Shown piece after piece: positions 1 to 16,047 of a stretch of 17,199 bases of DNA (its first letter is position 1; each line of letters opens with the position of its first letter). The position numbers and the translations under genes are program-made. The notes under the pieces were generated by a model. It was not told the origin of the DNA, made no database searches, and saw only the letters and a program-made list of their open reading frames with translations. Source of the stretch: a virus (taxonomy: Duplodnaviria; Heunggongvirae; Uroviricota; Caudoviricetes); the IMG/VR virus record IMGVR_UViG_2563366937_000009; one strand, written 5' to 3'.

Positions 1-348
1 TTACGAATTACTACGGCGCTGTTGCTTTTCCGCATGTACGCGTTTCACTATCTTATAAATCCATTGCAGCGTCAGATTATATTTCTTCGCTAATTCGGCG
101 TAGTTGCGACCATCGCACTCGCTATAGATTTGGTAGTCACGCTCCGACGCCCGTCCGGAGATCCCTTTCGGGAAATAAATGCTTTGCCCACCCCAGTTAC
201 GCATCATTCGGTCGGCAATGGCAAAGCCCACATTTTCCGCCGATGAGCTGTCGAGATTGATGCTCTCAATCAGAACTTGCGATGCATGAAACGCCAGGTC
301 GTTAATGATCTCCGGTGTCCGGGCCATCTCTTTTGATTTTCGTATCAT
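1..348 (-). CDS. Mor-family (phage Mu Mor/C-like) transcriptional activator, complete, divergently oriented from the lysis/tail genes
   Basis: 115-aa ORF; C-terminal half (GGQSIYFPKG...RDYQIYSECDGRNYAELAKKYNLTLQWIYKIVKR) fits the Mor/C family pattern of a conserved G-x-x-IYIPK segment followed by a helix-turn-helix. GGAG sits about 7 nt upstream of the ATG on the - strand. The stop codon is at 1-3, so the gene is complete. Confidence 0.7.
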   Translation of the reverse strand: MIRKSKEMARTPEIINDLAFHASQVLIESINLDSSSAENVGFAIADRMMRNWGGQSIYFPKGISGRASERDYQIYSECDGRNYAELAKKYNLTLQWIYKIVKRVHAEKQQRRSNS

Positions 349-587: not shown

Positions 588-885
588 TATTATTTTTACC
601 TGTAGTGTAAAAAGATCGTTTCCCTCACAGTCGCTGACTTTCTTAAACAAACTTTAAAAATCAAATGACTATGGACTATTCCTACGATTCACCGTCCTCT
701 TTTCCCTACATAATGACGCGCTTATTCTCCAGGACACCTTTTGCTCTTTTATTAATGGGTGGATTTATTAGCAAGCATGTTCATTTATAGAGGATCTATT
801 TTTTAAAGTTATTTATTAAAGCTTTTTTCATTCTTCACTGGAGGGATCTGGCGACACTAAACGCTCACTTATCAGGAGATATCGT

Positions 886-1173
886 ATGAAAAAAGTCACT
901 TTTCCCCGTCTTTCCGGCTGGCTGGTCGCTTCCGTCGCGCTGTTTGTCGCGATCGGCTGGACATCTTCCGCACAGATCCCGGTTGTCATTTATAAACTAA
1001 GTCTGGTTTCGCTCGCCGCTGTGCTGGGATACTGGCTCGATCGCAGTCTGTTTCCCTGGGCGCGGCCTGACTCATTTTGCCCCTGGGAAGAGGCGCGATG
1101 CTGCGCGGCGGCAATGATTCGTCGGGCTATCATCGTTGCAGCCGTCTGCCTTTCCGTCGCGTTAGGACTTTAG
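886..1173 (+). CDS. small membrane protein with three predicted hydrophobic segments; putative holin
   Basis: 95 aa with hydrophobic stretches LSGWLVASVALFVAIGW, VVIYKLSLVSLAAVLGYWL and AIIVAAVCLSVALGL. AGGAG lies 7 nt upstream of the ATG. Its stop is 2 nt before the endolysin start. The holin call rests on position and topology only. Confidence 0.45.
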   Translation: MKKVTFPRLSGWLVASVALFVAIGWTSSAQIPVVIYKLSLVSLAAVLGYWLDRSLFPWARPDSFCPWEEARCCAAAMIRRAIIVAAVCLSVALGL

Positions 1174-1175
1174 TG

Positions 1176-1781
1176 ATGCAGGTAAAATTTCTCGCGCTAA
1201 TTACTCTGTTCGCGTTCTTCCCGCTTAACGCATCTGAACCACCGCGAGCATCTCTGGCATGGCGAAACGAACTGATTCGAACTGCACGAGAAGTCTGGGG
1301 ACTGAACGCCCCGGTGGCAGACTTCGCCGGGCAGTTGCACCAGGAATCAGCCTGGCAGCCAATGGCGCGTTCCCCCGTCGGCGCACAGGGTATGGCGCAA
1401 TTTATGCCTGCCACAGCGACATGGATAAGCCAGTTGTATCCACAGCTACGTGAAAACAAGCCCTATAACCCAACCTGGGCGATTCGCGCATTGGTGCAAT
1501 ATGACCAGCATTTGTGGAAAAACATCTCGGCGAAAAATGGCTGCCAGCGTATGGCGTTTACCCTAAGCGCCTATAACGGTGGTCAGGGATGGGTTAATCG
1601 GGATAAAAAACTGGCCGCATCCAAAGGGTTAGATGCCACCATCTGGTTTGGTCATGTTGAGCACGTCAACGCCGGGCGTAGTGCCGCAAACTGGCGAGAA
1701 AATCGTCACTATCCGAAGATGATCCTCTATCAACATGCCGCCCGCTACTTACTCTGGGGGCAGGCAAGCTGTCTTCACTAA
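1176..1781 (+). CDS. lytic transglycosylase (SLT-domain) endolysin with N-terminal signal peptide or signal-anchor
   Basis: The track ORF 1077-1781 runs through the upstream gene, so the start is set at the ATG at 1176 (GTG at 1174 is an alternative). N-terminus MQVKFLALITLFAFFPLNA is signal-like. The LHQESAWQP...GAQGMAQFMP segment resembles the family-1 lytic transglycosylase catalytic Glu-Ser motif. Confidence 0.75.
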   Translation: MQVKFLALITLFAFFPLNASEPPRASLAWRNELIRTAREVWGLNAPVADFAGQLHQESAWQPMARSPVGAQGMAQFMPATATWISQLYPQLRENKPYNPTWAIRALVQYDQHLWKNISAKNGCQRMAFTLSAYNGGQGWVNRDKKLAASKGLDATIWFGHVEHVNAGRSAANWRENRHYPKMILYQHAARYLLWGQASCLH

Positions 1782-1793
1782 TCAGAGGGGCCG

Positions 1794-2108
1794 ATGAAAC
1801 TCAGTATCGATTTTTGGGAAGTGATCTCCCTTATGCTTTCCTTCGTTGGATTAATGTTTGCTGCCGGAAAATTGCTGTTAGCGCAAATTGAAAAAAGACT
1901 TAATGAGCGTTTTGAATCTCTGGAAAACGCGCGCCGGGAATCAGAAACAAGCTGGTCGAAACTGGAAAGAGAATTTCTCGAATTTCGTGCCGAGCTTCCG
2001 CTGCATTATGTCCGCAGAGAAGATTATCTTCGTGGCCAGGCAGTATTAGAAGCAAAGCTGGATGCCTTATATAGCAAAATAGAGCTATTACAACGTGGCA
2101 GCTATTAA
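1794..2108 (+). CDS. membrane-anchored coiled-coil protein; possible i-spanin-like lysis accessory protein
   Basis: 104 aa with an N-terminal hydrophobic segment (ISLMLSFVGLMFAAGKLLLA) followed by a charged, helical region. GAGGGG RBS. It sits immediately after the endolysin. No embedded lipoprotein (o-spanin) ORF was seen. Confidence 0.4.
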   Translation: MKLSIDFWEVISLMLSFVGLMFAAGKLLLAQIEKRLNERFESLENARRESETSWSKLEREFLEFRAELPLHYVRREDYLRGQAVLEAKLDALYSKIELLQRGSY

Positions 2109-2113
2109 ATACA

Positions 2114-2146
2114 TCCCCACCTTTACATAAGTGTGGGGATTTTTTA
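2114..2146 (+). terminator. intrinsic terminator after the lysis cassette
   Basis: 7-bp stem TCCCCAC (2114-2120) pairs with GTGGGGA (2133-2139) around a 12-nt loop, followed by TTTTTTA. Confidence 0.6.
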
Positions 2147-2254
2147 TAGCCATTCAATTTTTTCTCTAAATCACATTAAAAGATTCTTCACCTTCACTGC
2201 TTCAGAATACATTTCAACGATAACGAAGTGAGCAGTAATTAAGGAACACCCTAT

Positions 2255-2710
2255 ATGGAAATTTTATCTGTAATTAATTCTGTTGTGACCAGATTACGTG
2301 AACAGAATCCCGAAATGGACGTATTTATTTCATCGGTTGATGCCAATAAATATATTCCGCAGACGCAGCAAGTTACAGTGATTATTAATTATAGCGGTTC
2401 TCTATTTGCCATGCCTGAAAGCAGTGATGCCCTCGTGCAACAGCAAACGCTCCGTTTAACTGCCACCGTTATTGTTGGCAAAAATTGTGACGCGTTAAAC
2501 GCACTGGATCGCATACGCAGCGCACTGGGGGGGATCCAGCTTCCTGATTGCGAGCGTCTTCTTTGGCTTGAAACAGAAATCAATGCAGGCAAGAGCGGTG
2601 GTTTCTGCCGCTACATCCTGGAAATGGCGACCAGATCGCTGTTTATCGCAAAACGGGAAAGCACGGACCTTACCCTGCTTACTGAAGTTAATTACGAGGA
2701 AACTGAATGA
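2255..2710 (+). CDS. conserved tail-module protein directly upstream of the sheath gene (Mu gp37-like position); function unknown
   Basis: 151-aa ORF with an AAGGAA RBS. Its stop overlaps the next start (ATGA at 2707-2710). Assignment is by position in the Mu gene order, not by a recognised motif. Confidence 0.45.
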   Translation: MEILSVINSVVTRLREQNPEMDVFISSVDANKYIPQTQQVTVIINYSGSLFAMPESSDALVQQQTLRLTATVIVGKNCDALNALDRIRSALGGIQLPDCERLLWLETEINAGKSGGFCRYILEMATRSLFIAKRESTDLTLLTEVNYEETE

Positions 2711-2904
2711 AATACATCTACAACGGCCCGGCAAGCGGCGTCACCCTTGCCGACGGACAAGAAATCTTATTGTGGCCGAACAGTGAAATTGATCTGCCAG
2801 AAGAAAACGAGTGGGTTATGACCATGATTGCCCGCAATCACCTGACTCCTGTCATCACTCAGGAAGAACAAAATAACGGAGAGGAAATTGTACATGGCAG
2901 CTAA
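2707..2904 (+). CDS. small tail-module protein (Mu gp38-like position)
   Basis: 65-aa acidic ORF, translationally coupled to the upstream gene and overlapping the sheath start. Confidence 0.4.
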   Translation: MKYIYNGPASGVTLADGQEILLWPNSEIDLPEENEWVMTMIARNHLTPVITQEEQNNGEEIVHGS

Positions 2905-4318
2905 TTACCTGCACGGTGTAGAAACCATTGAAATTGAAACCGGTCCGCGCCCGGTTAAAGCGGTAAAATCCGCTGTAATCGCTTTAATCGGTAGTGCACC
3001 ATGCGGTCCGGTAAACAAACCAACATTGTGCCTTTCTGAAAGCGATGCCGCGCAGTTTGGCTCGACTCAGGCTAACTTTACTATCCCGCAGGCGCTGAAG
3101 GCGATTTATGACCACGGCGCCGGTACGGTGGTGGTGATTAACGTACTGGATCCGGCAAAACATGGCTCCAGCATCAGCAATGAGAGTATCACTTTTGATT
3201 CCAACAACCAGGCAAAACTGGCTCATCGTGCGGTGCGCAATGTCGTCCTGAAACCCTCTTCAACATCAGCCACTACGTATAGCAGCGCAGCGTTTCATGT
3301 TGATGAACAAACAGGAATAATCACTCGTGCAGAAACTGAGATCCCTGCCGGAGCGAAAGTTTGCGCCTATTACTCATGGGCCGATCCAACAAAAGTTACC
3401 GCAGCCGATATTATTGGCGCCGTTAATACCGCAGGCGATCGCACGGGGATGAAACTGCTACAGGATACCTATAACCTGTATGGTTTCTACGCCAAAATCC
3501 TGCTTGCTCCCGTTTTCTGTACGCAAAAATCGGTCACCACCGAACTGATTGCTCAGGCGGAAAAACTCGGTGCTATCGCCTACATTGACGCCCCAATCGG
3601 TACTACATTCCAGCAGGTACTGGCTGGTCGCGGCTCGAAAGGCGCAATCAACTTCAACACCAGTTCTGACCGTGCGCGTTTGTGCTATCCGCACGTCAAA
3701 GTTTATGACGGCTCAACCAACCAGGAAGTTCTCGAACCGCTATCTTCACGCGCTGCCGGACTGCGTGCCAAAGTAGACCTGGAGAAAGGTTTCTGGTGGA
3801 GCAACTCAAACCAGGAAATTCAGGGCATTATCGGTATCGAACGTTCACTTTCCGCAATGGTTGATGACCCGCAAAGTGAAGTGAATCAGCTCAACGAAAA
3901 CGGCATTACCACTGTTTTCAATAGTTACGGCTCTGGTCTGCGTTTATGGGGCAACCGCACTGCGGCATGGCCAACCGTGACCCATATGCGTAACTTTGAA
4001 AACGTTCGCCGCACGGGTGATGTGATTAACGAGTCGATCCGTTATTTCAGCCAGCAGTATATCGATATGCCGATTAATCAGGCACTAATTGATGCCCTGA
4101 CCGAGTCGGTAAATACCTGGGGCCGTAAGCTGATTGCCGACGGCGCACTGCTTGGCTTTGAGTGCTGGTACGATCCGGCGCGAAATTCACCGACCGAACT
4201 CAGTGCCGGGCATTTATTGCTGAGCTATAAATTCACCCCGCCACCGCCGCTGGAACGTCTGACGTTTGAAACTGAAATTACCTCTGAATATTTAGTCTCT
4301 CTGGAGAGCAATAGCTAA
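2894..4318 (+). CDS. contractile tail sheath protein (P2 FI / Mu L-like)
   Basis: About 474 aa. Start placed at the ATG at 2894, which has a GGAGAGG RBS (the track start at 2888 is an alternative). The C-terminal YGSGLRLWGNRTAAWP segment is the sheath-family G-x-R-x-WG-x-RT signature. A tube gene follows immediately. Confidence 0.88.
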   Translation: MAANYLHGVETIEIETGPRPVKAVKSAVIALIGSAPCGPVNKPTLCLSESDAAQFGSTQANFTIPQALKAIYDHGAGTVVVINVLDPAKHGSSISNESITFDSNNQAKLAHRAVRNVVLKPSSTSATTYSSAAFHVDEQTGIITRAETEIPAGAKVCAYYSWADPTKVTAADIIGAVNTAGDRTGMKLLQDTYNLYGFYAKILLAPVFCTQKSVTTELIAQAEKLGAIAYIDAPIGTTFQQVLAGRGSKGAINFNTSSDRARLCYPHVKVYDGSTNQEVLEPLSSRAAGLRAKVDLEKGFWWSNSNQEIQGIIGIERSLSAMVDDPQSEVNQLNENGITTVFNSYGSGLRLWGNRTAAWPTVTHMRNFENVRRTGDVINESIRYFSQQYIDMPINQALIDALTESVNTWGRKLIADGALLGFECWYDPARNSPTELSAGHLLLSYKFTPPPPLERLTFETEITSEYLVSLESNS

Positions 4319-4842
4319 TGGCTGGAAAAATTCAAATTAACCGTATTACCAATGCCAATATTTATCTCGATGGTAATAACCTTTTAGGTCGTGCAACCGA
4401 AATTAAATTACCGGATGTCAGTTTAATTATGCAGGAGCATAAAGCACTGGGCATGGTCGGCAAAATCGAACTCCCGGCAGGTTTCGATAAACTGGAAGGG
4501 GAAATTAAATGGAACTCCTTTTATCAAGACGTCATGCGTAAAACGGCAAACCCGTGGCAGGCGGTAGCATTACAGTGCCGCTCCAGTATTGATTGCTATA
4601 ACTCCCAGGGGAAAGCGAATCAATTAGCGTTAGTCACTCATTTGACTGTTATGTTTAAAAAGAATCCATTGGGAACATTTAAACAGAATGAAAACCCGGA
4701 ATTCAGCAGCGCCTTTGGTTGTACCTATATTAAACAGGTGGTCGATGGTGAAACACTACTGGAACTGGATTACCTGGCGAATATTTTCCGCGTTAACGGC
4801 GTGGATCAATTAAGTACCTATCGCAATAACATCGGTGGCTAA
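4318..4842 (+). CDS. tail tube protein (P2 FII / Mu M-like)
   Basis: 174 aa. Start overlaps the sheath stop (TAATG). Size and position are as expected for the tube gene downstream of the sheath. Confidence 0.8.
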   Translation: MAGKIQINRITNANIYLDGNNLLGRATEIKLPDVSLIMQEHKALGMVGKIELPAGFDKLEGEIKWNSFYQDVMRKTANPWQAVALQCRSSIDCYNSQGKANQLALVTHLTVMFKKNPLGTFKQNENPEFSSAFGCTYIKQVVDGETLLELDYLANIFRVNGVDQLSTYRNNIGG

Positions 4843-4847
4843 GTTAT

Positions 4848-4868
4848 TCGGGGCTACGGCCCCGATTT
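4848..4868 (+). other. GC-rich stem-loop just downstream of the tube gene
   Basis: TCGGGGC (4848-4854) pairs with GCCCCGA (4859-4865) around a TACG loop, followed by TTTCC. It may act as a partial terminator or mRNA stabiliser. Confidence 0.35.
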
Positions 4869-4892
4869 CCGCATGACCAATAAGGATACAAA

Positions 4893-5210
4893 ATGAAAGA
4901 ACATTATACCTTACAGTTCCCGTTTACTTCAGCGGCGGGAGACGTAATTAACACTCTGCAATTACGTCGCCTGAAAGTAAAAGATATGCGCAACGCGCGC
5001 CGGATCAGCGAAAAACCAGAAGAATGGGATGAACCGCTAATGGCTGCAATGACCGGACTGGTGCCAGAAGATTTAGCTGAAATGGATTTGCTGGATTACC
5101 AGGCATTGCAGAAACGATTTCAATCCATGCTTAGCGTGGCTACAGAATCCGCCACTGTTATGGCAAGCGATGGCGTTACTGGCGAGATGGTTTCGCTTTC
5201 CGCCCAGTGA
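4893..5210 (+). CDS. tail assembly chaperone (P2 gpE / Mu gp41-like)
   Basis: 105-aa acidic protein between the tube and tape-measure genes, the conserved chaperone position. An overlapping +1-frame extension is open to 5298. Confidence 0.65.
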   Translation: MKEHYTLQFPFTSAAGDVINTLQLRRLKVKDMRNARRISEKPEEWDEPLMAAMTGLVPEDLAEMDLLDYQALQKRFQSMLSVATESATVMASDGVTGEMVSLSAQ

Positions 5211-5399
5211 GATAGACGCCCTTACCGTCGATGACTTTAGCAACTGGCTGGATGAAGCCAACGCCCAAATAAAAATCGAATATGACTCGCAGACCTGATG
5301 TCTGCGAGTTTCCCAAGCCCGTCAGGTTTATTTCTTCCCTGCCCTTTTTTTTAGAAAAATAACCAGCGGGCCATTATCAATATTTAAAGAGAAACAATT

Positions 5400-7760
5400 T
5401 TGGCCAACGATATTATTACCCAGCTTCAGGCGCGTAATGAGACGTTGACGCAGGCAATAGCCCGTTACGGCTCACTCAACGCCAGAACATTGTTAACTCT
5501 CTCTACTCAGCAAGCGACAGTTATCAAACTAACGCAGCGACTTGCCGATTCCGCTCTCCGCCTGGAGGAAAATAGCCGCAGCCGCGCTAATCTGATGGAG
5601 AAAACCCAAACATTTGCCGGGCAATTTAGCAAAGTATTCAATGTTGAAGCCCCCGACTGGAAGTTGCCGTATGAGTTTCAGGACAATATGGTCAATATGG
5701 CGACCAAAGGTGGGATGAGTGATGCCACTCGCGAGACGCTCAGCCTTAATCTGCGCGACTGGAGTATGGATTTTAACCAGCAGCAGACCACGTTACAGTC
5801 CGCCGCTCTGACCTTAGTTGAAGGCAACATATCGTCCTTGCAGGATCTCAACCGCTATATGCCGGAGATCGCCAAAGCCGCCACCGCCACGCGCGACAGC
5901 GCCGAAACATGGGCGAAAGCCGCGCTCGCGACTCATGATCGACTGAATATTGCCCCGGAAAATTTCCACGCTGCGCAAAACATGATGTACAGCGTTACCA
6001 AAAGCGGTGGGCCTGCCATTGCCGAACAAACGCAGTGGATAGAGAAATTTGCAGGTAAAACCGGCGCTCAGGGTCTGGAAGGTATGGCTGAACTGACCGC
6101 CACCATGCAGATCGCCATGAAAAACGGTGCCAGCGCCAGTGCAGCGGCGGAGAATTTCGACCATTTTCTACAAACCACATTTTCGAAAAAAACCGATAAC
6201 TGGTTCGCCAGCCAGGGCGTCGATCTGCAAGGTTCTCTGCTGGAGCATCAGCAAAACGGTATGGGTGTTAGCGAAGCTATGACTCATATCGTGCAAATGC
6301 AGCTTGAGAAGATGAATCCGGCGATCCTCGATACCTTCAAACGCACCATGCAGATTGAAGATTTATCTGCCCGCAGCAATGCGCTGCAATCGATGGTGAC
6401 GCAGTTTAATCTGGGCGAAATGTTCGGCGATGCGCAAACGGTGGAATTCCTGGCCCCTATGCTGGCGAACATGGAAGAGTATCGCCAGCTAAAAGCCTCT
6501 GCCATGCAAGCCACCAGCAAGAATCTGATTGATGCCGACTTTTCTGCGCAAATGGCTTCGCCCATTGAACAGACTAAAGCGTTACAACTGGCGTTAAATG
6601 ATTTATGGCTCAGCATTGGCTTGCAGCTTATGCCGGCGATTGGCGAGCTGGCGCAAAGCCTTGCGCCGGTTATTCGCCAGTTCAGCGCCTGGCTACGCGA
6701 ACACCCGGCACTAGTGCAAAACATTGCGAAAATCGTCGGGGCGATTTGGCTGTTTAACGGTGCGCTGAATGTTTTAAAGCTGGGCGCGAACTTCATCGCC
6801 TCGCCGTTTATTCGTCTGGTCGATATCTTCCTGAAAGTCAGGGCAAGTCTGGCGCTCGGAGGCGCAGCGAGTAAGGTGCTATCGGCGGTTAAGTCATTGG
6901 GTGGCGGCGCAAAATGGCTAACGCAACTGCTTGGTCGTGGCCTGAGCGGAGCATTGAAACTGGTTGGTCGGACCGTTCTCTCACTAGGCCGGGTGCTACT
7001 GATGAATCCCATTGGTCTGGTCATCACTGCGATTGCGGGCGCGGCTTATCTGATTTATCGCAACTGGGAACCTATCACCAGGTTCTTTTCCGCCATCTGG
7101 AAACGTATTACCACGGCCTTTGACGGTGGCATTGCAGGTATTAGCCGGTTGATTCTCGACTGGTCGCCACTGGGGCTGTTCTACAGCGCCTTTTCCGGTG
7201 TGATGAATTGGTTTGGTGTTGAGATGCCTGCGAGTTTTAGCGAGTTCGGCAGCAATATACTGGGTAGCCTGGCCGACGGCATAATGAATGCTTTCCCCGC
7301 TCTGAAAGGCATTATTGATCAGGTCAAAAACGCCATGCCAGACTGGCTAAAAGCCACAATGGGGATCGGCACAGAAGCATCGGCTGCGACTGTTACAGGC
7401 ACGACTAATACCGCATCAGTCTCCCCCGCGACCGTTGTTCCAGGCGTTGCCGGTGCGCTTTTAACGCCGCCTGTGGGCAAACAACTCGCGCCATCCAGCA
7501 AAACGACAACGCCGTCATCGGCGCCAGTGGCAAAACCCGCGTCGGCCTCTTTACCAAGTAAATCCGTAACCAAACCGGCGACGCTACCCTCCCGTTCCCC
7601 AGGAAAAGTCCAGGTGAATTTTTCGCCACAAATTACCGTGCAGGGTAACGGACAAAACACCACTAAAGACATTCAGAACGTGTTGACGATGAGTAAACGC
7701 GAACTGGAAAGAATGATTAACGACGTAATGGCGCAGCAACAGCGCCGGGGGTATGCCTGA
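5400..7760 (+). CDS. tail tape measure protein
   Basis: 786 aa. Apparent TTG start at 5400, with an in-frame stop at 5385-5387 and AAGAGA upstream. Long helical N-terminal region, hydrophobic Gly/Ala/Leu-rich central region and a Pro/Ser/Thr/Ala/Lys-rich C-terminal linker. Sits at the canonical position after the chaperone. Confidence 0.85.
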   Translation: MANDIITQLQARNETLTQAIARYGSLNARTLLTLSTQQATVIKLTQRLADSALRLEENSRSRANLMEKTQTFAGQFSKVFNVEAPDWKLPYEFQDNMVNMATKGGMSDATRETLSLNLRDWSMDFNQQQTTLQSAALTLVEGNISSLQDLNRYMPEIAKAATATRDSAETWAKAALATHDRLNIAPENFHAAQNMMYSVTKSGGPAIAEQTQWIEKFAGKTGAQGLEGMAELTATMQIAMKNGASASAAAENFDHFLQTTFSKKTDNWFASQGVDLQGSLLEHQQNGMGVSEAMTHIVQMQLEKMNPAILDTFKRTMQIEDLSARSNALQSMVTQFNLGEMFGDAQTVEFLAPMLANMEEYRQLKASAMQATSKNLIDADFSAQMASPIEQTKALQLALNDLWLSIGLQLMPAIGELAQSLAPVIRQFSAWLREHPALVQNIAKIVGAIWLFNGALNVLKLGANFIASPFIRLVDIFLKVRASLALGGAASKVLSAVKSLGGGAKWLTQLLGRGLSGALKLVGRTVLSLGRVLLMNPIGLVITAIAGAAYLIYRNWEPITRFFSAIWKRITTAFDGGIAGISRLILDWSPLGLFYSAFSGVMNWFGVEMPASFSEFGSNILGSLADGIMNAFPALKGIIDQVKNAMPDWLKATMGIGTEASAATVTGTTNTASVSPATVVPGVAGALLTPPVGKQLAPSSKTTTPSSAPVAKPASASLPSKSVTKPATLPSRSPGKVQVNFSPQITVQGNGQNTTKDIQNVLTMSKRELERMINDVMAQQQRRGYA

Positions 7761-8713
7761 TGTATGCCGTTTTAGGAGAGATTGAATTTAAGGTTGTCAC
7801 ATTCTGGGACGGCTTTAAAAGCACAATGGGCGTGGATTACGCCACACATGCCCGTATTGAAGGCAAACCTGGCGTGCAGTTTATTGGCGATAAGCTGGAC
7901 ATGCTGGCGCTGGAATTTTCCCTGCACAGCCAGTTTTGCCAACCCACAACAGAGCTGAATCGACTGCGTGAAGCCATGCTTGCCCACAAAGCAATGGCGC
8001 TGGTGTTTGGCAACGGTGATTATCGCGGCTGGTTTGTAATTACAGAGTTAACCGCCACTCACCAGCACACCGATCCCTGGGGCAATGTCATTGCCCAAAG
8101 CGGAACAATGTCGCTCCAGGAGTATACCGGCGATCCGAAAAACCCACTCCTGCCCCCGGCGATTACCACCCAGGAGCCTAATATTGACGAAAAGGCGAGC
8201 GATTTTCCGGACAAGGTGGAGTCCTGGTTGGATCAGATATTGAACGCCATTGAAGAAGGTATGCGCAAAGCCAAAGAGATGATCGATGAACTGGCGCAAT
8301 CCATTGAAGATATTAAAAAAACAGTGGCAAAGGTTAAAGCACTGATTAAAGAGGCCAAAGCGTTAAAAGAAAAGTGTGAAAAGATAATTACGTCGTTGAA
8401 AAAGACTATCGATGCCATCGAAACCCTGTTTAAACAGCCGATGGATCTGCAAACGCTGGCAGGATTACCAAAAGCGTTGTCGGCGCAGATTAAAGCATTG
8501 CTGGGTAGCCTGCCGGGTATCCGCGACTGCGCCAAAGACGCCGGGACACTGGTTGACCATGCACAAGAACTGTTTGGCAGCATCACCAGCGCCATCGCCG
8601 AAGCAACTTTCGATAAAGCCACAACGTTGGTTGAGCAGGCGCGTACAACGGTACAGCAAACCACTCCCGCAGTGACTCAGCTCGCTGCCGCGACCATTAC
8701 GAGGAGCTGGTAA
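7760..8713 (+). CDS. gpU-like tail protein (Mu DNA-circularisation protein N-terminal-domain type) with a C-terminal coiled-coil extension
   Basis: 317 aa. Start overlaps the tape-measure stop (TGATG). The N-terminal ~150 aa has the P2 gpU / Mu N pattern by eye. Residues ~165-230 are Lys/Glu-rich heptad-like (KAKEMIDELAQSIEDIKKTVAKVKALIKEAKALKEKCEKII). Confidence 0.55.
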   Translation: MYAVLGEIEFKVVTFWDGFKSTMGVDYATHARIEGKPGVQFIGDKLDMLALEFSLHSQFCQPTTELNRLREAMLAHKAMALVFGNGDYRGWFVITELTATHQHTDPWGNVIAQSGTMSLQEYTGDPKNPLLPPAITTQEPNIDEKASDFPDKVESWLDQILNAIEEGMRKAKEMIDELAQSIEDIKKTVAKVKALIKEAKALKEKCEKIITSLKKTIDAIETLFKQPMDLQTLAGLPKALSAQIKALLGSLPGIRDCAKDAGTLVDHAQELFGSITSAIAEATFDKATTLVEQARTTVQQTTPAVTQLAAATITRSW

Positions 8714-8922
8714 TGCGATACCTTGAACATATCACCACCGACGGCGAACGCTGGGATAACCTGGCATGGCATTACTACGGTGATGCACTGGCTTATGAAC
8801 GCATTATCGCCGCCAATCCACATGTCGCCATTTATCCGGTACTGCCTGCCGGTATTCAGCTCATTATTCCGGTCATTACCGTCAACAAGACCGTATCGGA
8901 GATCCCACCATGGCTGAGATAA
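8713..8922 (+). CDS. tail protein X (P2 gpX-like, LysM-like)
   Basis: 69 aa. TAATG overlap with the upstream gene. The conserved position between the gpU-like and gpD-like genes matches the phiCTX/R-pyocin order U-X-D. Confidence 0.65.
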   Translation: MRYLEHITTDGERWDNLAWHYYGDALAYERIIAANPHVAIYPVLPAGIQLIIPVITVNKTVSEIPPWLR

Positions 8923-9950
8923 GCGTAACTGGCGGCGTCTTTGCCACGCTCGCGCCCATTTTTACCCTCTGGTATGGGCATAAAGATATCACTTATGACA
9001 TCACGCCTTATGTCACCAGCATCAGTTACCAGGACAGTATTAAAAACGAGTCGGATACCATCGCGATTACACTGGATGACACCGATGGACGCTGGATAAA
9101 AGAGTGGTATCCCGGCAAAGGCGATACGCTGGCGCTGCACATAGGTTATCAGGGGGAAAAACTGCTCGATTGTGGTCAATATATCATTGATAAAATTGAC
9201 ATTTCAGCACCACCTTCCACGGTAAATATTGATGGCATCGCCACTTCCGTCAATCAGGCGCTGCGCACCCGTAACAGTCAGGGCTTTGAAGAGACAACGC
9301 TTTCAGCCATCGCCAGCCGTATCGCGCAAACTCACGGCCTGACGCTGGTGGGCAAAATCGAGCCGCTGACGATTGACCGGGTGACACAGTACGGCGAAAC
9401 CGATGTCGGATTTCTCAAGCGCCTGGCCAGCGAATATGGCTATGCGGTAAAGGTGACCACCAAAGAACTGATTTTTTCGCATTTACCCACGCTGCGCTGC
9501 CTGGCGCCGGTGAAAAAGATCGACCGCAAAGACGTTTCGCATTTCACCTTCAAAGATACCATTAACCGCATCTACAAAAACGCCACCGTACAGCATCAAA
9601 ATAGTAAGAAAAAAGAACTGGTTATCTACACTCACGACAGCCAGCAAAAGCCGTCTGCCCGTGGAGTCGGCACCAGTGCCGACACGCTGAAACTGAACAG
9701 TCGGGCGCCGGACGTTGGCGCGGCGCAGGCAAAGGCCAACGCCGCGCTCGACAGCCACAACGAATATCAACAAACCGGAACGCTCAGGATGATGGGCTGC
9801 CCGGAACTGACGGCAGGCAATAAAATCGAGCTAACCGATTTTGGTGTACTTTCCGGTCAGTGGCTGATTGATAAATCGACTCACAGTTTTGTGCGCAGCG
9901 GCTATATCACTGAAATCGACATTTCACGCGGGCCAGCAACCAGCCAGTAA
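8910..9950 (+). CDS. late control gene D-type tail/baseplate hub protein (P2 gpD / Mu P-like)
   Basis: 346 aa. Overlaps the X-like gene by 13 nt. Size and position fit the gpD family. Confidence 0.8.
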   Translation: MAEISVTGGVFATLAPIFTLWYGHKDITYDITPYVTSISYQDSIKNESDTIAITLDDTDGRWIKEWYPGKGDTLALHIGYQGEKLLDCGQYIIDKIDISAPPSTVNIDGIATSVNQALRTRNSQGFEETTLSAIASRIAQTHGLTLVGKIEPLTIDRVTQYGETDVGFLKRLASEYGYAVKVTTKELIFSHLPTLRCLAPVKKIDRKDVSHFTFKDTINRIYKNATVQHQNSKKKELVIYTHDSQQKPSARGVGTSADTLKLNSRAPDVGAAQAKANAALDSHNEYQQTGTLRMMGCPELTAGNKIELTDFGVLSGQWLIDKSTHSFVRSGYITEIDISRGPATSQ

Positions 9951-9959
9951 GGAGGCAAT

Positions 9960-10661
9960 ATGAAAGGAGTAACCCGGCAAACGGGGATTATCAGCGATAT
10001 TGACGAAACCAGCGTTCGGGTGCGGGTCACGCTACCAGAGTGTGACAATCTGAAGAGTAACTGGCTTGCGGTGCTGCAGCGCAATTCTCAGGACAATAAG
10101 GATTACTGGCTACCGGATATGGGCGAACAGGTGGAAGTTCTGCTGGATGATAACGGTGAAGATGGCGTGGTGCTGGGCGCAGTATATTCAACGGTAGACA
10201 CTGCGCCAGTAGCATCGCGCGACAAACGCTATGTCCAGTTTTCTGATGGCGCAGCGTTTGAATATGACCGCAGCACCCACCAGCTTACGATTAATGGTGG
10301 CATCGAAAAAATCGTGATTGAGGTTATTGACCGTACCAGCCTGACATCGCCCAACGTTGAGGTTAAAGCCCAACACGTCACCGTGACTTCCGACACTGTT
10401 GATGTGAAAGCCACCGATGTCAGCATTGAAGCCAGTAAGGTCGATGTTAAAGCGGCAGCAGTGACGGTAGATGCGCCCATGAGCACCTTTACCGGCAACG
10501 TCACGGTGATGAAAAAACTCACCTGGCTTGGTGGCATGGCAGGAAGTGGAGGCATCGGCAACGCCGCCACGATAACCGGCAATGTCAACGTGATTGGTAA
10601 CGTTCAGGCCAGCGGCACATTGCAGGACAGCGGTGGCAACTCCAACCACCATTCACACTGA
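9960..10661 (+). CDS. baseplate spike protein (P2 gpV / Mu gp45-like)
   Basis: 233 aa with a strong AGGAGG RBS. N-terminal domain (GIISDIDETSVRVRVTLPECDNLKSNWLAVLQ) followed by a repetitive beta-strand-like C-terminus (VTVTSDTVDVKATDVSIEASKVDVKAAAVTVDA) typical of spike needles. Confidence 0.8.
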   Translation: MKGVTRQTGIISDIDETSVRVRVTLPECDNLKSNWLAVLQRNSQDNKDYWLPDMGEQVEVLLDDNGEDGVVLGAVYSTVDTAPVASRDKRYVQFSDGAAFEYDRSTHQLTINGGIEKIVIEVIDRTSLTSPNVEVKAQHVTVTSDTVDVKATDVSIEASKVDVKAAAVTVDAPMSTFTGNVTVMKKLTWLGGMAGSGGIGNAATITGNVNVIGNVQASGTLQDSGGNSNHHSH

Positions 10662-10666
10662 CGTTT

Positions 10667-10696
10667 AACCCGCCTGATGGCGGGTTTTCTCTTTTT
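10667..10696 (+). terminator. intrinsic terminator-like hairpin inside the tail operon, between the V-like and W-like genes
   Basis: AACCCGCC (10667-10674) pairs with GGCGGGTT (10679-10686) around a TGAT loop, followed by TTCTCTTTTT. Confidence 0.5.
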
Positions 10697-10759
10697 AATC
10701 AATCAGTTTTCTAAATCGCTTTAATATCCCCGCCGCCTGTTCAGGGCGAAAATACCCTC

Positions 10760-11119
10760 ATGAACACGAAAACACGCCCCTCTACGCTGCACTGGCAACC
10801 CGCCTTGCAGCGGCCTGAAGAATACGTCTGCGGACTGGATGATATTCACCAGGCAATACACATCATTCTGCGCACACCGCGCGGCAGTGATCCCCACAGA
10901 CCGCTGTTTGGCAGCAACTTGTGGCACTACATCGATTATCCCATCGAGCGGGCGATCCCGCATGTGGTAAGGGAGTCGGTAGAGGCCATCCGCCAGTGGG
11001 AACCGCGCTGCCGGTTGCTGAAGGTGACACCGGTAATCGACGGGGAACATCTGACGTTACGTGTGCAATGGCGCGCCGCTGACGGCGTAATCAACTCAAC
11101 GGAGGTGTTATGGCGATAG
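10760..11119 (+). CDS. baseplate wedge protein, GPW/gp25 family
   Basis: 119 aa. The pattern (HQAIHIILRTPRGSDPHRPLFGSNLWHYIDYP...EAIRQWEPRCRLLKV) fits the gp25/GPW family. Confidence 0.85.
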   Translation: MNTKTRPSTLHWQPALQRPEEYVCGLDDIHQAIHIILRTPRGSDPHRPLFGSNLWHYIDYPIERAIPHVVRESVEAIRQWEPRCRLLKVTPVIDGEHLTLRVQWRAADGVINSTEVLWR

Positions 11120-12225
11120 CCGAACCCGATTTTATTGACCGCGATCCTGCGCAAATTACCAGCGAGATGATTGCGCAGTACGAAGATGCCAGCGGCAAAA
11201 AGCTCTACCCGGCACAGGCCGAGCGGTTGCTGATTGACCTTTTTGCCTATCGTGAAAACCTTGTACGCATCGCCATTCAGGAAGTGGCGAAACAGAATCT
11301 GGTCGCGTATTCCCGCGCGCCAATGCTGGATTATTTAGGTGAGCTGGTGGGCGTTCACCGCTTACCTGCACAACCGGCAAAAACCACGTTGCAGTTTTCG
11401 GTAGCCAGTAAGAATCGAAATAACATTCTAATTCCACAAGGAACACGTGCCAGCGCCTCTGACAGCGTGATGTTTGCTACCGATGAAGATGTTCTGATTC
11501 CGGCGGGAAGTTTGCATATAGCCGTTCCCGCCACCAGTCTGGCAACAGGCGAAGCGGGCAATGGCTGGCAGCCTGCACAGATTAGCGCCCTTGTTGACAG
11601 GATTGGTTATTACGATATCAGCGTGACCAACCTGACGGCCTCAACCGGCGGCTGCGGTGAAGAGAGCGATGACGCACTACGCCAGCGGATCCAACTGGCG
11701 CCGGAAAGTTTCAGCAATGCGGGCAGCTATGGTGCCTACCGCTTTCATACGCTTTCCGTAAGCCAGTCGATTATTGACGTCGCGGTACTGGGGCCGGACG
11801 AAGGATTGCCAGAAGGCTGCGTGGAGATCTACCCGCTAACGCTGAATGGTCTGCCGGGCGTGGAACTGCTCGCGCAAATTGAACTGGAGGTTAGCAAGGA
11901 GAAAAAACGTCCGCTGACCGACAAAGTAAGTGCGAAATGCGCCGTTAGGGTGCCGTATGAAATCCGTGCGCAGCTCACACTGTTTACCACTGCCGATCAG
12001 GAGACAACGCTGGCTGCGGCGCGTAAAGCGATTAGCCTCTGGACGCAACAGCGGCAGAAACATCTGGGACAGGACATTGTGCCAAACCAGATAATCAAAG
12101 TGTTACAAGTCGATGGTGTCTATGACGTTGCGCTGAATATGCCTACAAAACGTATTTTGCAGGCGCATGAGTGGGCGGAATGCACCGCGATAGACGTCAC
12201 GATTGCCGGAGTCAGCGATGGATAA
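11110..12225 (+). CDS. baseplate J-like protein (P2 gpJ / Mu gp47-like)
   Basis: 371 aa. Overlaps the W-like gene by 10 nt. Size and position fit the Baseplate_J family. Confidence 0.85.
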   Translation: MAIAEPDFIDRDPAQITSEMIAQYEDASGKKLYPAQAERLLIDLFAYRENLVRIAIQEVAKQNLVAYSRAPMLDYLGELVGVHRLPAQPAKTTLQFSVASKNRNNILIPQGTRASASDSVMFATDEDVLIPAGSLHIAVPATSLATGEAGNGWQPAQISALVDRIGYYDISVTNLTASTGGCGEESDDALRQRIQLAPESFSNAGSYGAYRFHTLSVSQSIIDVAVLGPDEGLPEGCVEIYPLTLNGLPGVELLAQIELEVSKEKKRPLTDKVSAKCAVRVPYEIRAQLTLFTTADQETTLAAARKAISLWTQQRQKHLGQDIVPNQIIKVLQVDGVYDVALNMPTKRILQAHEWAECTAIDVTIAGVSDG

Positions 12226-12934
12226 ATTGCTGCCGCCACCGCCGCTTGCCAGCGATGAGCGTTTTTCAACTCTGGCAAATATCGCCACCGAGCGTTTTGC
12301 CCAACTCGATCTGACAGCGTTGATGGTTTATCTGGTAGACCTGGTTGATGCTTCGGCATTACCTGCCCTTGCAGAACAATTTCACGTTCAGGGGCTGGAA
12401 GGTTGGTTATTTACCACTGATGAACGGGAGAAGCGCGAGTTAATTAAGCAAGCCATTGAGCTGCATAAATATAAAGGAACGATTTGGGCGGTACGGCGGG
12501 TGCTGGAAATACTTTCGCTACCAGGAACTATTTCAGAATGGTTTGAATATGGGGGGAAGGCTTATTTTTTTAAGGTTGATATTACACTAGAGGAAAAAGG
12601 ATTAAATGAAGATGAATTTAATGCACTTATCGCATTAATTCACGAATATAAAAATGTTCGTTCAAAACTTGAAAGCATTACCATCTGGCTTATTAACCAA
12701 AGTCAAATGCCAGTTATTGGCAGCGCAATCCAGGGTGGGGAGGTTATTACTGTATTACCCCCTATTGCGGAGAGTATTTGGCAGTCATCGACACTATTTT
12801 TAGCGACAGGTTACTGTGTTGAGGAATACATAAATCTCTTTCCGTATCAACCTGATCGCATTACACAATCCCAACCGATTCATGTCGGCACAGGATACTG
12901 GAGTACCGAAATTATGTCTGTATACCCGGAGTAA
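12203..12934 (+). CDS. tail protein I (P2 gpI / Mu gp48-like)
   Basis: 243 aa. Overlaps the J-like gene by 23 nt. The N-terminal LLPPPPLA motif region and position fit gpI. The C-terminal half is markedly AT-richer than the upstream genes. Confidence 0.7.
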   Translation: MPESAMDKLLPPPPLASDERFSTLANIATERFAQLDLTALMVYLVDLVDASALPALAEQFHVQGLEGWLFTTDEREKRELIKQAIELHKYKGTIWAVRRVLEILSLPGTISEWFEYGGKAYFFKVDITLEEKGLNEDEFNALIALIHEYKNVRSKLESITIWLINQSQMPVIGSAIQGGEVITVLPPIAESIWQSSTLFLATGYCVEEYINLFPYQPDRITQSQPIHVGTGYWSTEIMSVYPE

Positions 12935-12936
12935 GT

Positions 12937-14433: not shown

Positions 14434-15086
14434 TGGAATATAAAAATTTTACACTCTATAAACCAACAGAAAGTATTGGTGGTATTTTTTATCTAAAATC
14501 TGCTGACGATGTTGATTGGTACGAGGCACAAAAAAACTTTTCTACCGAAACGTTAAAAATTGCTTATGATAGCACAGGTAGAATTTGCATTGCGGATACT
14601 GATGCCTCAGCGATTTGGCCAATAAATTTATCTATCAGTGAGATCTCATCTGAGAATGTTCCTGATGATTTTTCAACAAATGGGAAATGGCTCTGGAATG
14701 GCGAAAGTATAATCAGCTCTGTAACAATCGTAACCGCTAAAAAAAATAAAGTAGAGGATATCAAAAATCAACGCGACACCATCACAACCGATTACATCAT
14801 CATCAACAACCATCACTTCCACAGTGATACAAATAGCCGTATCCAACAGCTTTCACTCACTAAAATGGGAGCGGAGAAAAAAATCCTTCCAGGTTTAATG
14901 TGGAAAACTAAAAATAACGGTCTGATTGAGTTAACCAACGAAATCGCTGCCCAGTTTGAATCGGTAACAATAGATCACGATATGCGCCTGTTCGCCAACG
15001 CCCAGCGTCATATCGCGGCGGTGGAAGCTCTGGACGATATTCAGGCAGTGCTCGACTACGATTACTCCACAGGCTGGCAACCATGA
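14433..15086 (+). CDS. tail fibre assembly protein (chaperone; P2 gpG / Mu U-like)
   Basis: Start placed at the ATG overlapping the fibre stop (TAATG at 14431-14435); the track ORF starts upstream at 14409. AT-rich variable N-terminal part and a conserved C-terminal tail (RLFANAQRHIAAVEALDDIQAVLDYDYSTGWQP). Confidence 0.75.
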   Translation: MEYKNFTLYKPTESIGGIFYLKSADDVDWYEAQKNFSTETLKIAYDSTGRICIADTDASAIWPINLSISEISSENVPDDFSTNGKWLWNGESIISSVTIVTAKKNKVEDIKNQRDTITTDYIIINNHHFHSDTNSRIQQLSLTKMGAEKKILPGLMWKTKNNGLIELTNEIAAQFESVTIDHDMRLFANAQRHIAAVEALDDIQAVLDYDYSTGWQP

Positions 15087-15538: not shown

Positions 15539-15543
15539 ATCAC

Positions 15544-15570
15544 ACCGGGCACAATGCCCGGTTCCTTATA
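15544..15570 (+). terminator. putative terminator at the end of the tail operon
   Basis: ACCGGGC (15544-15550) pairs with GCCCGGT (15556-15562) around an ACAAT loop, followed by TCCTTATAT. The T-run is weak. Confidence 0.4.
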
Positions 15571-16047
15571 TACTCTAAATAGCTTATATGGACACCTCCC
15601 CGATGCAAGCACGGTCAGACAGAGAAAATGGTCTCTGCGCCTTACTCCGAAAGGGCTGACCGAAAATGGAGAGCTATTCCGCTTGGCTATTTAGAATTAG
15701 GCTATAACATATTTATAAAAAATATTATTCCAAACAAAACATTCATGTGAAGAATAAAAATAAATTTTTAAAAATAAATATATTGCGTTATAAATCACTT
15801 CAAATATAGTTTGTCCTTTTGGTACCCTCATAGACGATGCGAGGAAACAGCGTGTTTACTGCCTCACTCCTCTGGAAAAGTAAGGTTATCACTAATAAAA
15901 ATGAGTCAGATAACACGTTGCCGCTGGCACGCCACAAAGATAGAGGCTTAAGTAGGATAACATTCACATACTATGCATATACACTGATTCCTCATTTGCT
16001 TATAAAAATTCAATAAAGCAAGGTAACAATAGAAAGGATAGTACGTC

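Follow-up and report, generated by a model that had tools for sequence, protein, structure and literature searches.

A nonamer upstream of phage lysis and tail genes lies in the variable spacer of putative Mor-type late promoters

The 17,199-nucleotide stretch of Caudoviricetes DNA analysed here (IMG/VR record IMGVR_UViG_2563366937_000009; hereafter the window) carries the nonamer ATTCTTCAC in the same orientation upstream of its lysis and its tail operon, and a third time, inverted, upstream of a glycosyltransferase gene. The question is whether this word is the binding site of the Mor-like activator encoded in the window, or another late-promoter element, as the first-pass annotation had suggested. 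Comparison with related clusters points elsewhere. We consider it likely, judging from the sequences compared, that the window has three Mor-type late promoters resembling Pm of phage Mu (P1, P2 and P3), each heading its own transcription unit, and that the nonamer is incidental to them. P1 would drive the lysis genes, P2 would drive gp37, the sheath and tube genes and the tail genes that follow, and P3 would drive the gpW/J/I baseplate and fibre genes. The features that carry the argument are as follows.

1–348, minus strand: mor-family activator gene, divergent from the lysis and tail genes
798–815, plus strand: A/T-rich block ATTTTTTAAAGTTATTTA, directly 5' of the P1 dyad
816–858, plus strand: P1 composite, 5' of the lysis genes
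816–829, plus strand: P1 candidate Mor-box dyad TTAAA-GCTT-TTTTC, centre about -42.5/-43.5; the dyad pattern matches at only two other sites in the window
830–838, plus strand: nonamer copy 1, ATTCTTCAC, P1 spacer positions 1–9 (about -35 to -27), directly 3' of the dyad
853–858, plus strand: P1 predicted -10 hexamer GACACT
2113–2140, plus strand: predicted intrinsic terminator closing the lysis operon just 5' of P2 (hairpin -15.5 kcal/mol, z -4.6, followed by TTTTTT)
2166–2208, plus strand: P2 composite, 5' of the tail genes
2166–2179, plus strand: P2 candidate Mor-box dyad CTAAA-TCAC-ATTAA, preceded by a T-run (2158–2163) and followed by a conserved AAGA (2180–2183)
2183–2191, plus strand: nonamer copy 2, ATTCTTCAC, P2 spacer positions 4–12 (about -32 to -24)
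2203–2208, plus strand: P2 predicted -10 hexamer CAGAAT
10667–10686, plus strand: predicted intrinsic terminator after baseplate gene V, just 5' of P3 (-15.3 kcal/mol, z -5.2, T-rich tail)
10711–10753, plus strand: P3 composite, 5' of the baseplate genes
10711–10724, plus strand: P3 candidate Mor-box dyad CTAAA-TCGC-TTTAA, the top PWM score in the window (17.6 bits)
10748–10753, plus strand: P3 predicted -10 hexamer GAAAAT, with the gpW/gp25 ATG (10760) 7 nt downstream
15747–15755, minus strand: nonamer copy 3, with neither a Mor box nor a composite match

Layout and conservation of the candidate promoters

Comparison across seven genera revealed one conserved layout, in which a dyad of the form [C/T]TAAA-N4-[A/T]TT[A/T][A/C] is followed after exactly 23 nt by a -10 hexamer nAnnnT, with no -35 element. 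The corresponding composite, YTAAA-N4-WTTWM-N23-SANAMT, has three matches in the window against 0.01 expected, although such patterns were built from these same sequences and the window-level statistics are partly circular; independent support comes from the other genera and from Mu Pm. All three matches lie on the plus strand, in intergenic DNA, 5' of operon starts. Footprinting in the seven genera gave majority fractions of 0.89–1.0 in the dyad arms, 0.78–0.86 in the -10 and 0.53–0.62 at spacer positions 5–23, and the spacing between dyad and -10 was fixed at 23 nt except at P2 of S. electus (24 nt). Each promoter would comprise an A/T-rich block, a 14-bp imperfect inverted repeat nTAAA-N4-nTTAA, a variable spacer of 23 nt and the -10 hexamer nAnnnT. 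The dyad, which is 16 bp when counted as two 5-bp arms with 6 bp between them, is centred 30 nt 5' of the -10 hexamer, that is at -42.5/-43.5 relative to the predicted start sites. The A/T blocks are conserved at the sequence level at 798–815, 2152–2165 and 10692–10710, as are the three -10 hexamers across genera, these being assigned by conservation only. A consensus scan found no canonical sigma-70 promoter at P1–P3, where the -35 positions read ATTCTT, AAGATT and TATCCC and match TTGACA at one, two and two of six positions, respectively. An Rfam search of the window returned no match.

At P1, the block ATTTTTTAAAGTTATTTA is near-invariant in the window, E. coli, Salmonella, two Superficieibacter and Phytobacter. 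It may be a region of the alpha-CTD/UP type, by analogy with the A/T-rich alpha-CTD site of Mu Pm (PMC4390567), or a second, weaker Mor half-site; TTAAA-GTTA-TTTAT (803–816) has a PWM score of 11.2 bits at 803. The left arm of the P1 dyad is invariant in the seven genera and the right arm reads TTTyC or TTTAA, the TTTTC of the window being a poor half-site. The P1 -10 is kept in the seven genera as [GC]A[TC]ACT with variable flanks, always 23 nt past the dyad, and is followed in the window by a predicted start at about 865, a Shine-Dalgarno sequence AGGAG (875–879) and the holin ATG (886). At P2, nTAAA-N4-ATTAA-AAG is kept in Salmonella, Superficieibacter, Phytobacter, Dryocola, Lelliottia, Chromobacterium, Burkholderia and Pseudomonas, and the -10 is nAnAAT with A-11 and T-7 in all genera, the predicted start lying at about 2215 and the gp37 ATG at 2255. 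The spacers at P2 in other genera are unrelated to that of the window. E. coli A37 and Salmonella both retain P3. In Salmonella its dyad is a perfect palindrome, TTAAAGCGCTTTAA, 23 nt from GAAAAT, and the promoter is kept despite the insertion of gtrABC upstream. Its spacer begins TATCCCCGCC and is G+C-rich, unlike those of P1 and P2. The P3 mRNA may be leaderless, judging from the position of the gpW/gp25 start codon; the 7-nt arrangement of -10 and ATG recurs in many related loci.

Other anchors for aligning P1 with P2 were considered. An alignment on an A[TC]AC core puts the nonamer 24 nt away in both promoters, seemingly a positional signal. We rejected it because AATACA at P2 lacks T-7, whereas the hexamer 3 nt upstream, CAGAAT, shows both A-11 and T-7 in every genus; CAGAAT was preferred because it alone puts P2 at the 23-nt spacing seen in P1 and P3, in Mu Pm and at 79 related sites. 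ATTAAA(A)G as a common anchor was also rejected, with a spacing mismatch of 7–8 nt, ATTAAA forming the left dyad arm at P1 and the right one at P2. An N5 palindrome at 643–657 was considered as a further Mor box and discarded, as no -10 at Mor-box spacing was seen by eye on either strand.

The same pattern extends well beyond the window. Relatives were collected by a profile search of genome contigs with a sheath alignment; a contig scan with Gp37 alone returned none. Related tail clusters of many genera contain about 80 sites that fit the Mor-type pattern. More precisely, 92 plus-strand dyads were found in 81 related loci and 79 of them have nAnnnT exactly 23 nt downstream, compared with 1 of 35 on the minus strand; as the loci share ancestry, the 79 of 92 are not independent events. 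Composite matches in these loci fall mostly in gaps between open reading frames (76 of 83). The relatives bearing the box belong to Enterobacterales, Burkholderia, Pseudomonas, Chromobacterium and Jeongeupia.

The divergent gene at the left end encodes a member of the Mor family (Pfam PF08765; 129 bits, the cut-off being 24.9; E 7.1e-38). The protein is 100% identical to its E. coli A37 counterpart and 88% identical to Salmonella STM4219; BLASTP relates it to Mu Mor (GenBank sequence; 27% identity, E 7e-13) and to Mu C (34%, E 6e-11). Across the compared genera Mor is 81–90% identical, with no difference between the window and Salmonella in the C-terminal HTH region. In Chromobacterium, mor directly adjoins a Mor box.

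In Mu, the Mor dyad is centred at -43.5 and replaces the -35 element, alpha-CTD having an A/T-rich site 5' of the dyad (PMC4390567, PMC2582627, PMC4287176), and sigma region 4 sits just 3' of the dyad in both the Mor and the C activation complexes (bioRxiv 10.1101/2025.05.02.651988). By homology, the product of the window's mor gene (1–348) would bind the dyad centred near -43, stand in for the -35 contact and recruit sigma-70 RNA polymerase by way of both alpha-CTD and region 4 of sigma, with region 4 occupying the very stretch of spacer that holds the nonamer.

The spacer between mor and the holin gene also holds a candidate LexA (SOS) box at 570–589, TGCTGTATGTGCATACAGTA. It has one mismatch to TACTGTAT-N4-ATACAGTA (CTGT-N8-ACAG), was matched in 0 of 200 shuffles and is conserved in seven genomes of six genera. 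It may control mor (minus strand, predicted -10 TAAAAT at 564–559), a putative rightward promoter (TTTACA-16-TACAGT) or both.

What the nonamer is

The three exact copies of ATTCTTCAC lie where they had been reported, as do the longer strings ATTCTTCACTG (830–840) and ATTCTTCACcTTCACTG (2183–2199) at 48 nt from the holin ATG and 64 nt from the gp37 ATG. Their recurrence at promoter-proximal positions holds for copies 1 and 2, whereas copy 3 is 293 nt 5' of the glycosyltransferase ATG and on the opposite strand. Nor do the copies exceed chance. Taken as a single word over the whole window, ATTCTTCAC occurs three times against 0.12 expected, but 190 different 9-mers are present at least three times in the window, against about 78 in dinucleotide shuffles. 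When one mismatch is allowed there are six matches against 3.9 expected, and 42 of 200 shuffles reach at least six. The copy number of ATTCTTCAC in the window is not above chance. For a 9-mer common to P1 and P2 specifically, the chance is about 0.02–0.08: a common run of at least 9 nt arose in 52 of 3000 shuffles (1.7%) of the 43-nt promoter cores and in 236 of 3000 (about 8%) of the two 100-nt upstream regions; for whole intergenic regions the figure was 237 of 500. Copy 3 is unrelated. It sits in a non-homologous AT-rich spacer that has no homologue among 5,426 E. coli genomes even in a distant-mode search, and it shares bases with TTCACA, the -35 of a minus-strand promoter of sigma-70-like type.

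Position and conservation tell the same story for copies 1 and 2. In P1 the nonamer abuts the dyad, and in P2 a gap of 3 nt separates the two, so that its start lies 23 and 20 nt, respectively, from the -10; it was found neither in P3 nor in Mu Pm. The orthologous positions at P1 in other genera read GTTCTTCCG, GTTCTTCCG, GCTCTTCAT, GTTTTAACG, ACGATTCTG and AATCCTTCC (6, 6, 6, 3, 4 and 5 of 9 identical), and those at P2 in five other genera read ACGCCTGAT, AATTCACTT, CATTCACCG, ATATTTACC and CCCTTTTTG (4, 3, 2, 5 and 2 of 9). Conservation in orthologous clusters, which the first-pass annotation had named as a check of its own proposal, therefore speaks against it, with 3–6 of 9 at P1 and 2–5 of 9 at P2. 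At P1 only xTTCTTC is kept (in Salmonella and Superficieibacter), and conservation in the P1 spacer is higher over its first seven bases, GTTCTTC, than over the remainder. Among the 81 related loci, the nonamer is present at orthologous sites only in E. coli (A37). It is invariant in cluster-carrying E. coli genomes; their promoter segments are at least 95% identical, and since hardly any base of the promoter varies within that species, this invariance does not discriminate between readings.

What was right in the earlier proposal is that both upstream regions look to be activator-type late promoters beside a Mor-family gene, with a common cis element. The common element is instead the 14-bp dyad just upstream of the nonamer, which is itself out of register and missing from P3. 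On these comparisons, ATTCTTCAC is not the Mor recognition element and is variable-spacer sequence between dyad and -10. Its identity in P1 and P2 is limited to Escherichia and is most likely chance or drift in T/C-rich spacer DNA, perhaps superimposed on a weakly constrained, dyad-proximal GTTCTTC at P1, a stretch for which a modest function is possible.

Alternative readings and their weight

That ATTCTTCAC is itself the activator site, or a core late-promoter element acting at both operon starts and at the third site, we regard as very improbable. The exactness of the three copies speaks for it, as does the placement of two of them, same-oriented, no more than 65 nt from operon starts and inside activator-type promoters. 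Given how similar Mor is across genera, and the identity of its HTH region between the window and Salmonella, the recognition sequence should be conserved too, yet the nonamer is only partial at P1 and poorer still at P2. It lacks dyad symmetry, whereas Mor and C proteins bind dyads (PMC4390567, PMC2582627); it shifts by 3 nt relative to dyad and -10; it is missing from P3 and Mu Pm; and its third copy has neither a Mor box nor -10 geometry around it, in a window where its copy number is not above chance. The comparative data contradict this reading and largely refute it. That the nonamer binds some other factor, of the host or of the element, which co-regulates the three locations, is more improbable still. 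The exact copies do lie at three non-coding places, and we take TTCTTCACn of the nonamer to resemble a degenerate DnaA box (TTATNCACA, 7 of 9). Against this, there is no cross-genus conservation, near-copies are not enriched, no known consensus is matched well, and copy 3 lies on the opposite strand in unrelated DNA.

A lineage-specific spacer or -35-proximal element, tuning P1 and P2 in Escherichia without being a recognition site, is unlikely; it might act, for example, by shaping the interface of sigma region 4 and Mor, or a DNA bend just 3' of the Mor box. The nonamer lies immediately 3' of the dyad, where bases are critical in Mu (PMC2582627) and where sigma region 4 sits (bioRxiv 10.1101/2025.05.02.651988). 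The retention of xTTCTTC at P1 in Salmonella and Superficieibacter, the rarity of such a shared word in shuffled 43-nt cores and its invariance within E. coli all point the same way. However, with the 3-nt shift the two copies face RNA polymerase differently, P3 has a completely different spacer, P2 spacers elsewhere are unrelated, and within-species invariance is uninformative where the whole promoter hardly varies. We also see a small chance, slighter again than for a tuning element, that the nonamer is an Escherichia-specific module on two of the three Mor promoters, either altering how sigma region 4 or Mor engages P1 and P2 or serving as the site of an extra factor, in which case expression of lysis and tail-tube genes would be tuned apart from that of the baseplate (P3), or else that a wider version applies. 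In the latter, one Mor-like protein together with the conserved LexA box could run a domesticated head-less tail cluster at lysC by means of a Mor box that Mu and BcepMu-like elements have in common; the first genes would often be leaderless.

With three Mor-type promoters as the preferred reading, the nonamer finding as first written matters very little. The gain is a corrected regulatory map of a widespread, tailocin-like, lysC-adjacent chromosomal tail cluster (Escherichia, Salmonella STM4196-4219 and relatives): three terminator-separated putative late units, each with a Mor box of the Mu Pm type at a fixed spacing of 23 nt to the -10, and a candidate SOS box in the mor–lysis spacer. In this family of phages and tailocins, the pattern nTAAA-N4-nTTAA-N23-nAnnnT may offer a simple, strand-specific way to predict late promoters, and it supplies concrete targets for asking whether and how the tail cluster is induced.

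Relation to known systems

The promoters are ordinary representatives of an already known kind. The searchable literature (STM tags, tailocin/Mor/SOS, motifs, BcepMu) yielded no account of this box in such elements, and the paper on ST131 tailocins treats other elements and contains no promoter analysis (PMC9205054). In Escherichia, the window corresponds to the Salmonella cluster STM4196-4219 next to lysC. In BcepMu-like, Mu-type prophages and tail clusters (PF09646, Gp37 family; Gp37 is presumably linked to BcepMu), late operons are preceded by the same nTAAA-N4-ATTAAAAG, 23 nt and a -10. Unlike the BcepMu-like prophages, the element in the window has only mor, lysis and tail genes, and it looks like a tailocin-like remnant.

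Late promoters of P2 (Ogr) and P4 (Delta) are likewise activator-dependent, with an upstream dyad, and drive P2-type tail genes; the window indeed carries P2-type V, W, J, I, U, X and D homologues. Ogr-type promoters have a TGT-N12-ACA dyad near -55 and a zinc-finger activator. In the window no activator or motif of the Ogr type was seen, and the regulator is of the Mor family.

The closest likeness is to Mu. Its promoter Pm, defined by experiment and annotated as Mor-activated, reads GTAAA-GCCG-GTTAA followed by 23 nt and TATCCT and matches the window pattern, its left arm being GTAAA where those of the window are T/C-TAAA. Pm and the window promoters have in common the dyad form, the 23-nt spacing, the lack of a -35, A/T-rich upstream DNA and a Mor-family activator encoded nearby (PMC4390567). 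The C-type promoters of Mu such as Plys are similar in having a -10 without a -35, with a Mor/C-family dimer or tetramer on a 16-bp dyad at -43.5 that overlaps the -35 region, and like those of the window they drive lysis and morphogenesis genes (PMC2582627). The C box of Plys, however, is of the form TTAT...ATAA (TTATTTCCTGTCACCATAA), unlike the TAAA-N4-TTAA type found here. Mu uses a cascade from Mor to C to the late promoters, whereas in the window, where no separate C is seen, one Mor-like protein apparently serves the lysis, tail and baseplate operons directly.

The tail cluster and its relatives

The window is a Mu/P2-type tail cluster without head genes, laid out as follows.

1-348, minus strand: Mor-family gene (PF08765, E 7e-38)
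886-2108: holin, SLT transglycosylase and membrane protein genes
2255-15538: Gp37-family gene, then sheath, tube, tape measure, baseplate and fibre genes
15539-16047: AT-rich spacer
16048 onward: group-1 glycosyltransferase gene (PF00534)

Relatives about 92% identical to the left 2.7 kb, which runs from mor into the start of gp37, were present in 197 of 5,426 complete E. coli genomes. The E. coli A37 cluster is located between lysC and yjbD, and STM4196-4219 is the Salmonella counterpart at about 75% identity. Scanning one genome per species with the sheath alignment gave 79 related loci. Full mor-holin-SLT-membrane-gp37-sheath synteny was seen in six of the loci compared, namely the fetched loci of E. 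coli A37 and Salmonella Infantis and those of Superficieibacter (two), Phytobacter and Dryocola from the sheath scan; a Lelliottia locus retains the lysis and tail genes. Mor is 81-90% identical across the syntenic loci, and the window and Salmonella proteins have identical C-terminal HTH regions, so the DNA site of Mor should be conserved as well. At the right flank, 15562-17199 (AT-rich spacer and glycosyltransferase) had no homologue in the 5,426 E. coli genomes, distant mode included, and in E. coli A37 its place is taken by nucleotidyltransferase and slipin genes, indicating a variable cargo site. The fibre gene (12937-14433) contains a 168-nt unit in four tandem copies (13485-14201, 73-90% identical), which form the repeat-built shaft of the tail fibre.

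The 9-mer and the conserved layout of P1 and P2

The first-pass annotation had proposed the 9-mer ATTCTTCAC as a site for the Mor-like activator or another late-promoter element.

830-838, plus strand: 9-mer, copy 1
2183-2191, plus strand: 9-mer, copy 2
15747-15755, minus strand: 9-mer, copy 3

The three copies, the longer strings around them and their distances to genes were all correctly reported. The observation holds up but does not go beyond chance: 190 different 9-mers occur at least three times in the window, against about 78 in dinucleotide shuffles, and with one mismatch allowed the word has 6 matches versus 3.9 expected, i.e. no enrichment. Shuffling the two 100-nt upstream regions produced a shared run of at least 9 nt 7.9% of the time; with the 43-nt promoter cores the figure was 1.7%, and with the full intergenic regions 47%. 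The co-location at P1 and P2, chosen after the fact, is marginally unusual at best.

Alignment of both intergenic regions across relatives revealed a common order of elements: a strongly conserved A/T-rich block ending in a short inverted repeat (the dyad, or Mor box), then a variable stretch, a conserved hexamer (A at position 2, T at position 6) and a ribosome-binding site. No canonical sigma-70 promoter was detected at P1, P2 or P3.

Elements of promoters P1 (816-858, ahead of the lysis genes), P2 (2166-2208, ahead of the tail genes) and P3 (10711-10753, ahead of the baseplate genes). Fractions are majority-base fractions from an anchored, ungapped comparison.
Dyad: P1, TTAAA-N4-TTT(T/C/A)(C/A); P2, [CT]TAA(A/C)-N4-[AT]TTAA
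Spacer, dyad to -10: P1, 23 nt; P2, 23 nt, starting AAG
-10 hexamer: P1, [GC]A[TC]ACT; P2, nAnAAT
Left arm, fraction: P1, 1.00; P2, 0.90
Right arm, fraction: P1, 0.89; P2, 0.97
-10 hexamer, fraction: P1, 0.86; P2, 0.78
Spacer positions 5-23, fraction: P1, 0.62; P2, 0.53
Spacer sequence (23 nt): P1, ATTCTTCACTGGAGGGATCTGGC; P2, AAGATTCTTCACCTTCACTGCTT; P3, TATCCCCGCCGCCTGTTCAGGGC

The 9-mer occupies spacer positions 1-9 in P1 (about -35 to -27) and 4-12 in P2 (about -32 to -24), and is missing from the P3 spacer and from Pm, the middle promoter of phage Mu. Orthologous positions in other genera read GTTCTTCCG, GTTCTTCCG, GCTCTTCAT, GTTTTAACG, ACGATTCTG and AATCCTTCC at P1, and ACGCCTGAT, AATTCACTT, CATTCACCG, ATATTTACC and CCCTTTTTG at P2. 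Of all the loci compared, E. coli A37 alone has the word at the orthologous sites; as every E. coli genome carrying the promoter segments has them at 95% identity or more, invariance within the species is uninformative about the 9-mer in particular. The word is neither the Mor recognition sequence nor a constant promoter element. The idea of shared Mor-dependent promoter elements survives, with the dyad as the motif in place of the 9-mer. One minor alternative keeps a role for part of the flank: xTTCTTC beside the P1 dyad is partly conserved, perhaps because the bases that directly follow Mor/C sites are known to be important (PMC2582627).

Copy 3 has neither a Mor box nor a match to the composite of dyad, spacer and -10, and no homologue of the DNA around it was found among the E. 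coli genomes. The copy overlaps the -35 of a minus-strand sigma-70-like promoter (15724-15751, TTCACA-16-AATAAT, 10/12, TG before the -10) facing a strong two-way hairpin (15544-15562) that lies just beyond the last tail gene, at a distance of about 160 nt. This predicted promoter could give rise to a small or antisense transcript; Rfam gave no match in the window. Given the first two copies, word frequency implies a chance of about 12% for a further one across the 34 kb of both strands. The similarity of this region to P1 picked up by the repeat finder (21 nt, 81%) consists of T-runs, and its TTAAA is 2 nt off for a dyad. Nearby, AAAATAAATATATTG(ttt)GCGTTAT at 15771-15791 recurs at 512-536 in the mor-holin spacer (15 nt matching exactly, plus GCGTTAT); this repeat lacks conservation in Salmonella and is probably chance in AT-rich DNA.

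The third promoter and the family-wide box

The dyad pattern YTAAA-N4-WTTWM has just three matches in the window, the third (10711-10724) in the gap that separates baseplate gene V from W, with GAAAAT exactly 23 nt after it.

2113-2140: intrinsic terminator preceding P2
10667-10686: intrinsic terminator preceding P3

The cluster therefore comprises three separate units with one box each. For the composite (dyad, 23 nt, SANAMT) the window holds three matches, all plus-strand and intergenic, versus 0.01 expected, a statistic that is partly circular because the pattern was derived from the same data. Independent support comes from conservation of P3 in E. coli A37, from the terminator found ahead of P2 as well, and from Salmonella, where P3 is a perfect palindrome, TTAAAGCGCTTTAA, followed by 23 nt and GAAAAT. 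In Salmonella the O-antigen glucosylation genes gtrABC (L002 26737-29890) are inserted between V and W, splitting the tail cluster upstream of the retained P3 box, which still lies directly upstream of gpW. The gpW/gp25 ATG follows the P3 -10 by exactly 7 nt (10748-10762) without a Shine-Dalgarno sequence, which points to a leaderless mRNA; many relatives in Burkholderia, Pandoraea and Jeongeupia (L026, L028, L029, L032, L035, L037-39, L068) show this 7-nt arrangement ahead of a ~375-aa ORF.

We surveyed 81 related loci (845 kb) with a relaxed dyad. On the tail-gene strand, 79 of 92 dyads had nAnnnT exactly 23 nt downstream, versus 1 of 35 on the opposite strand, counts that are not independent since the loci share ancestry. 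The strand bias and 23-nt spacing are unambiguous: the box nTAAA-N4-ATTAAAAG + 23 nt + nAnnnT is almost exclusively on the tail-gene strand (e.g. L007 844; L028 379 and 6500; L053 593 and 7159). Most composite matches lie between ORFs (76/83), usually 7-60 nt ahead of the next start codon. Boxes of this type were seen in Enterobacterales, Burkholderia, Pandoraea, Pseudomonas, Chromobacterium, Jeongeupia and others. The mor genes of Chromobacterium and Rivihabitans directly adjoin a box-bearing spacer (GTAAA-GCGC-GTTAA-AAGA; TGTAAAC-GA-GTTTACA). No description of this family-wide late-promoter box was found in the searchable literature.

The mor-holin spacer also holds a near-consensus LexA/SOS box, TGCTGTATGTGCATACAGTA (570-589), conserved in six genera, which would tie the system to DNA damage. 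It overlaps a plus-strand sigma-70-like promoter (TTTACA-16-TACAGT) and sits immediately upstream of a possible -10 on the minus strand, TAAAAT (564-559), that would face mor; the hexamers lie at 559-566 and 583-588. Between it and P1, the perfect palindrome TTAAACAAACTTTAA (643-657), Mor-box-like with a centre of 5 rather than 4 nt, is conserved in E. coli, Salmonella, Phytobacter and Dryocola, and neither strand has a -10 at the Mor-box spacing; the palindrome might be a promoterless Mor operator or a site for another protein.

Comparison with phage Mu

Mor/C promoters have a -10 and lack a -35; their 16-bp dyad, two 5-bp repeats 6 bp apart, is centred at -43.5 with an A/T-rich alpha-CTD site just upstream, and the activator touches alpha-CTD and sigma region 4 (PMC4390567, PMC2582627, PMC4287176; bioRxiv 10.1101/2025.05.02.651988). 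By analogy, the Mor-like protein would bind the three dyads, centred near -43, stand in for the absent -35 and recruit sigma-70 RNA polymerase as at Mu Pm, with predicted transcription starts near 865, 2215 and 10760. The corrected promoter map is of modest practical value, and the 9-mer finding itself is of low interest.

Mu Pm, annotated in GenBank as 'middle promoter, activated by Mor', reads GTAAA-GCCG-GTTAA, 23 nt, TATCCT and fits the window composite. Primer coordinates in PMC4390567 place its AGTAA at -51 to -47, so this element is the published Mor site. P1-P3 therefore share the sequence type and exact geometry of an experimentally defined Mor operator, and are ordinary promoters of a known kind, the Mu Pm type. 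The C-dependent Mu promoter Plys carries a different box, TTAT...ATAA.
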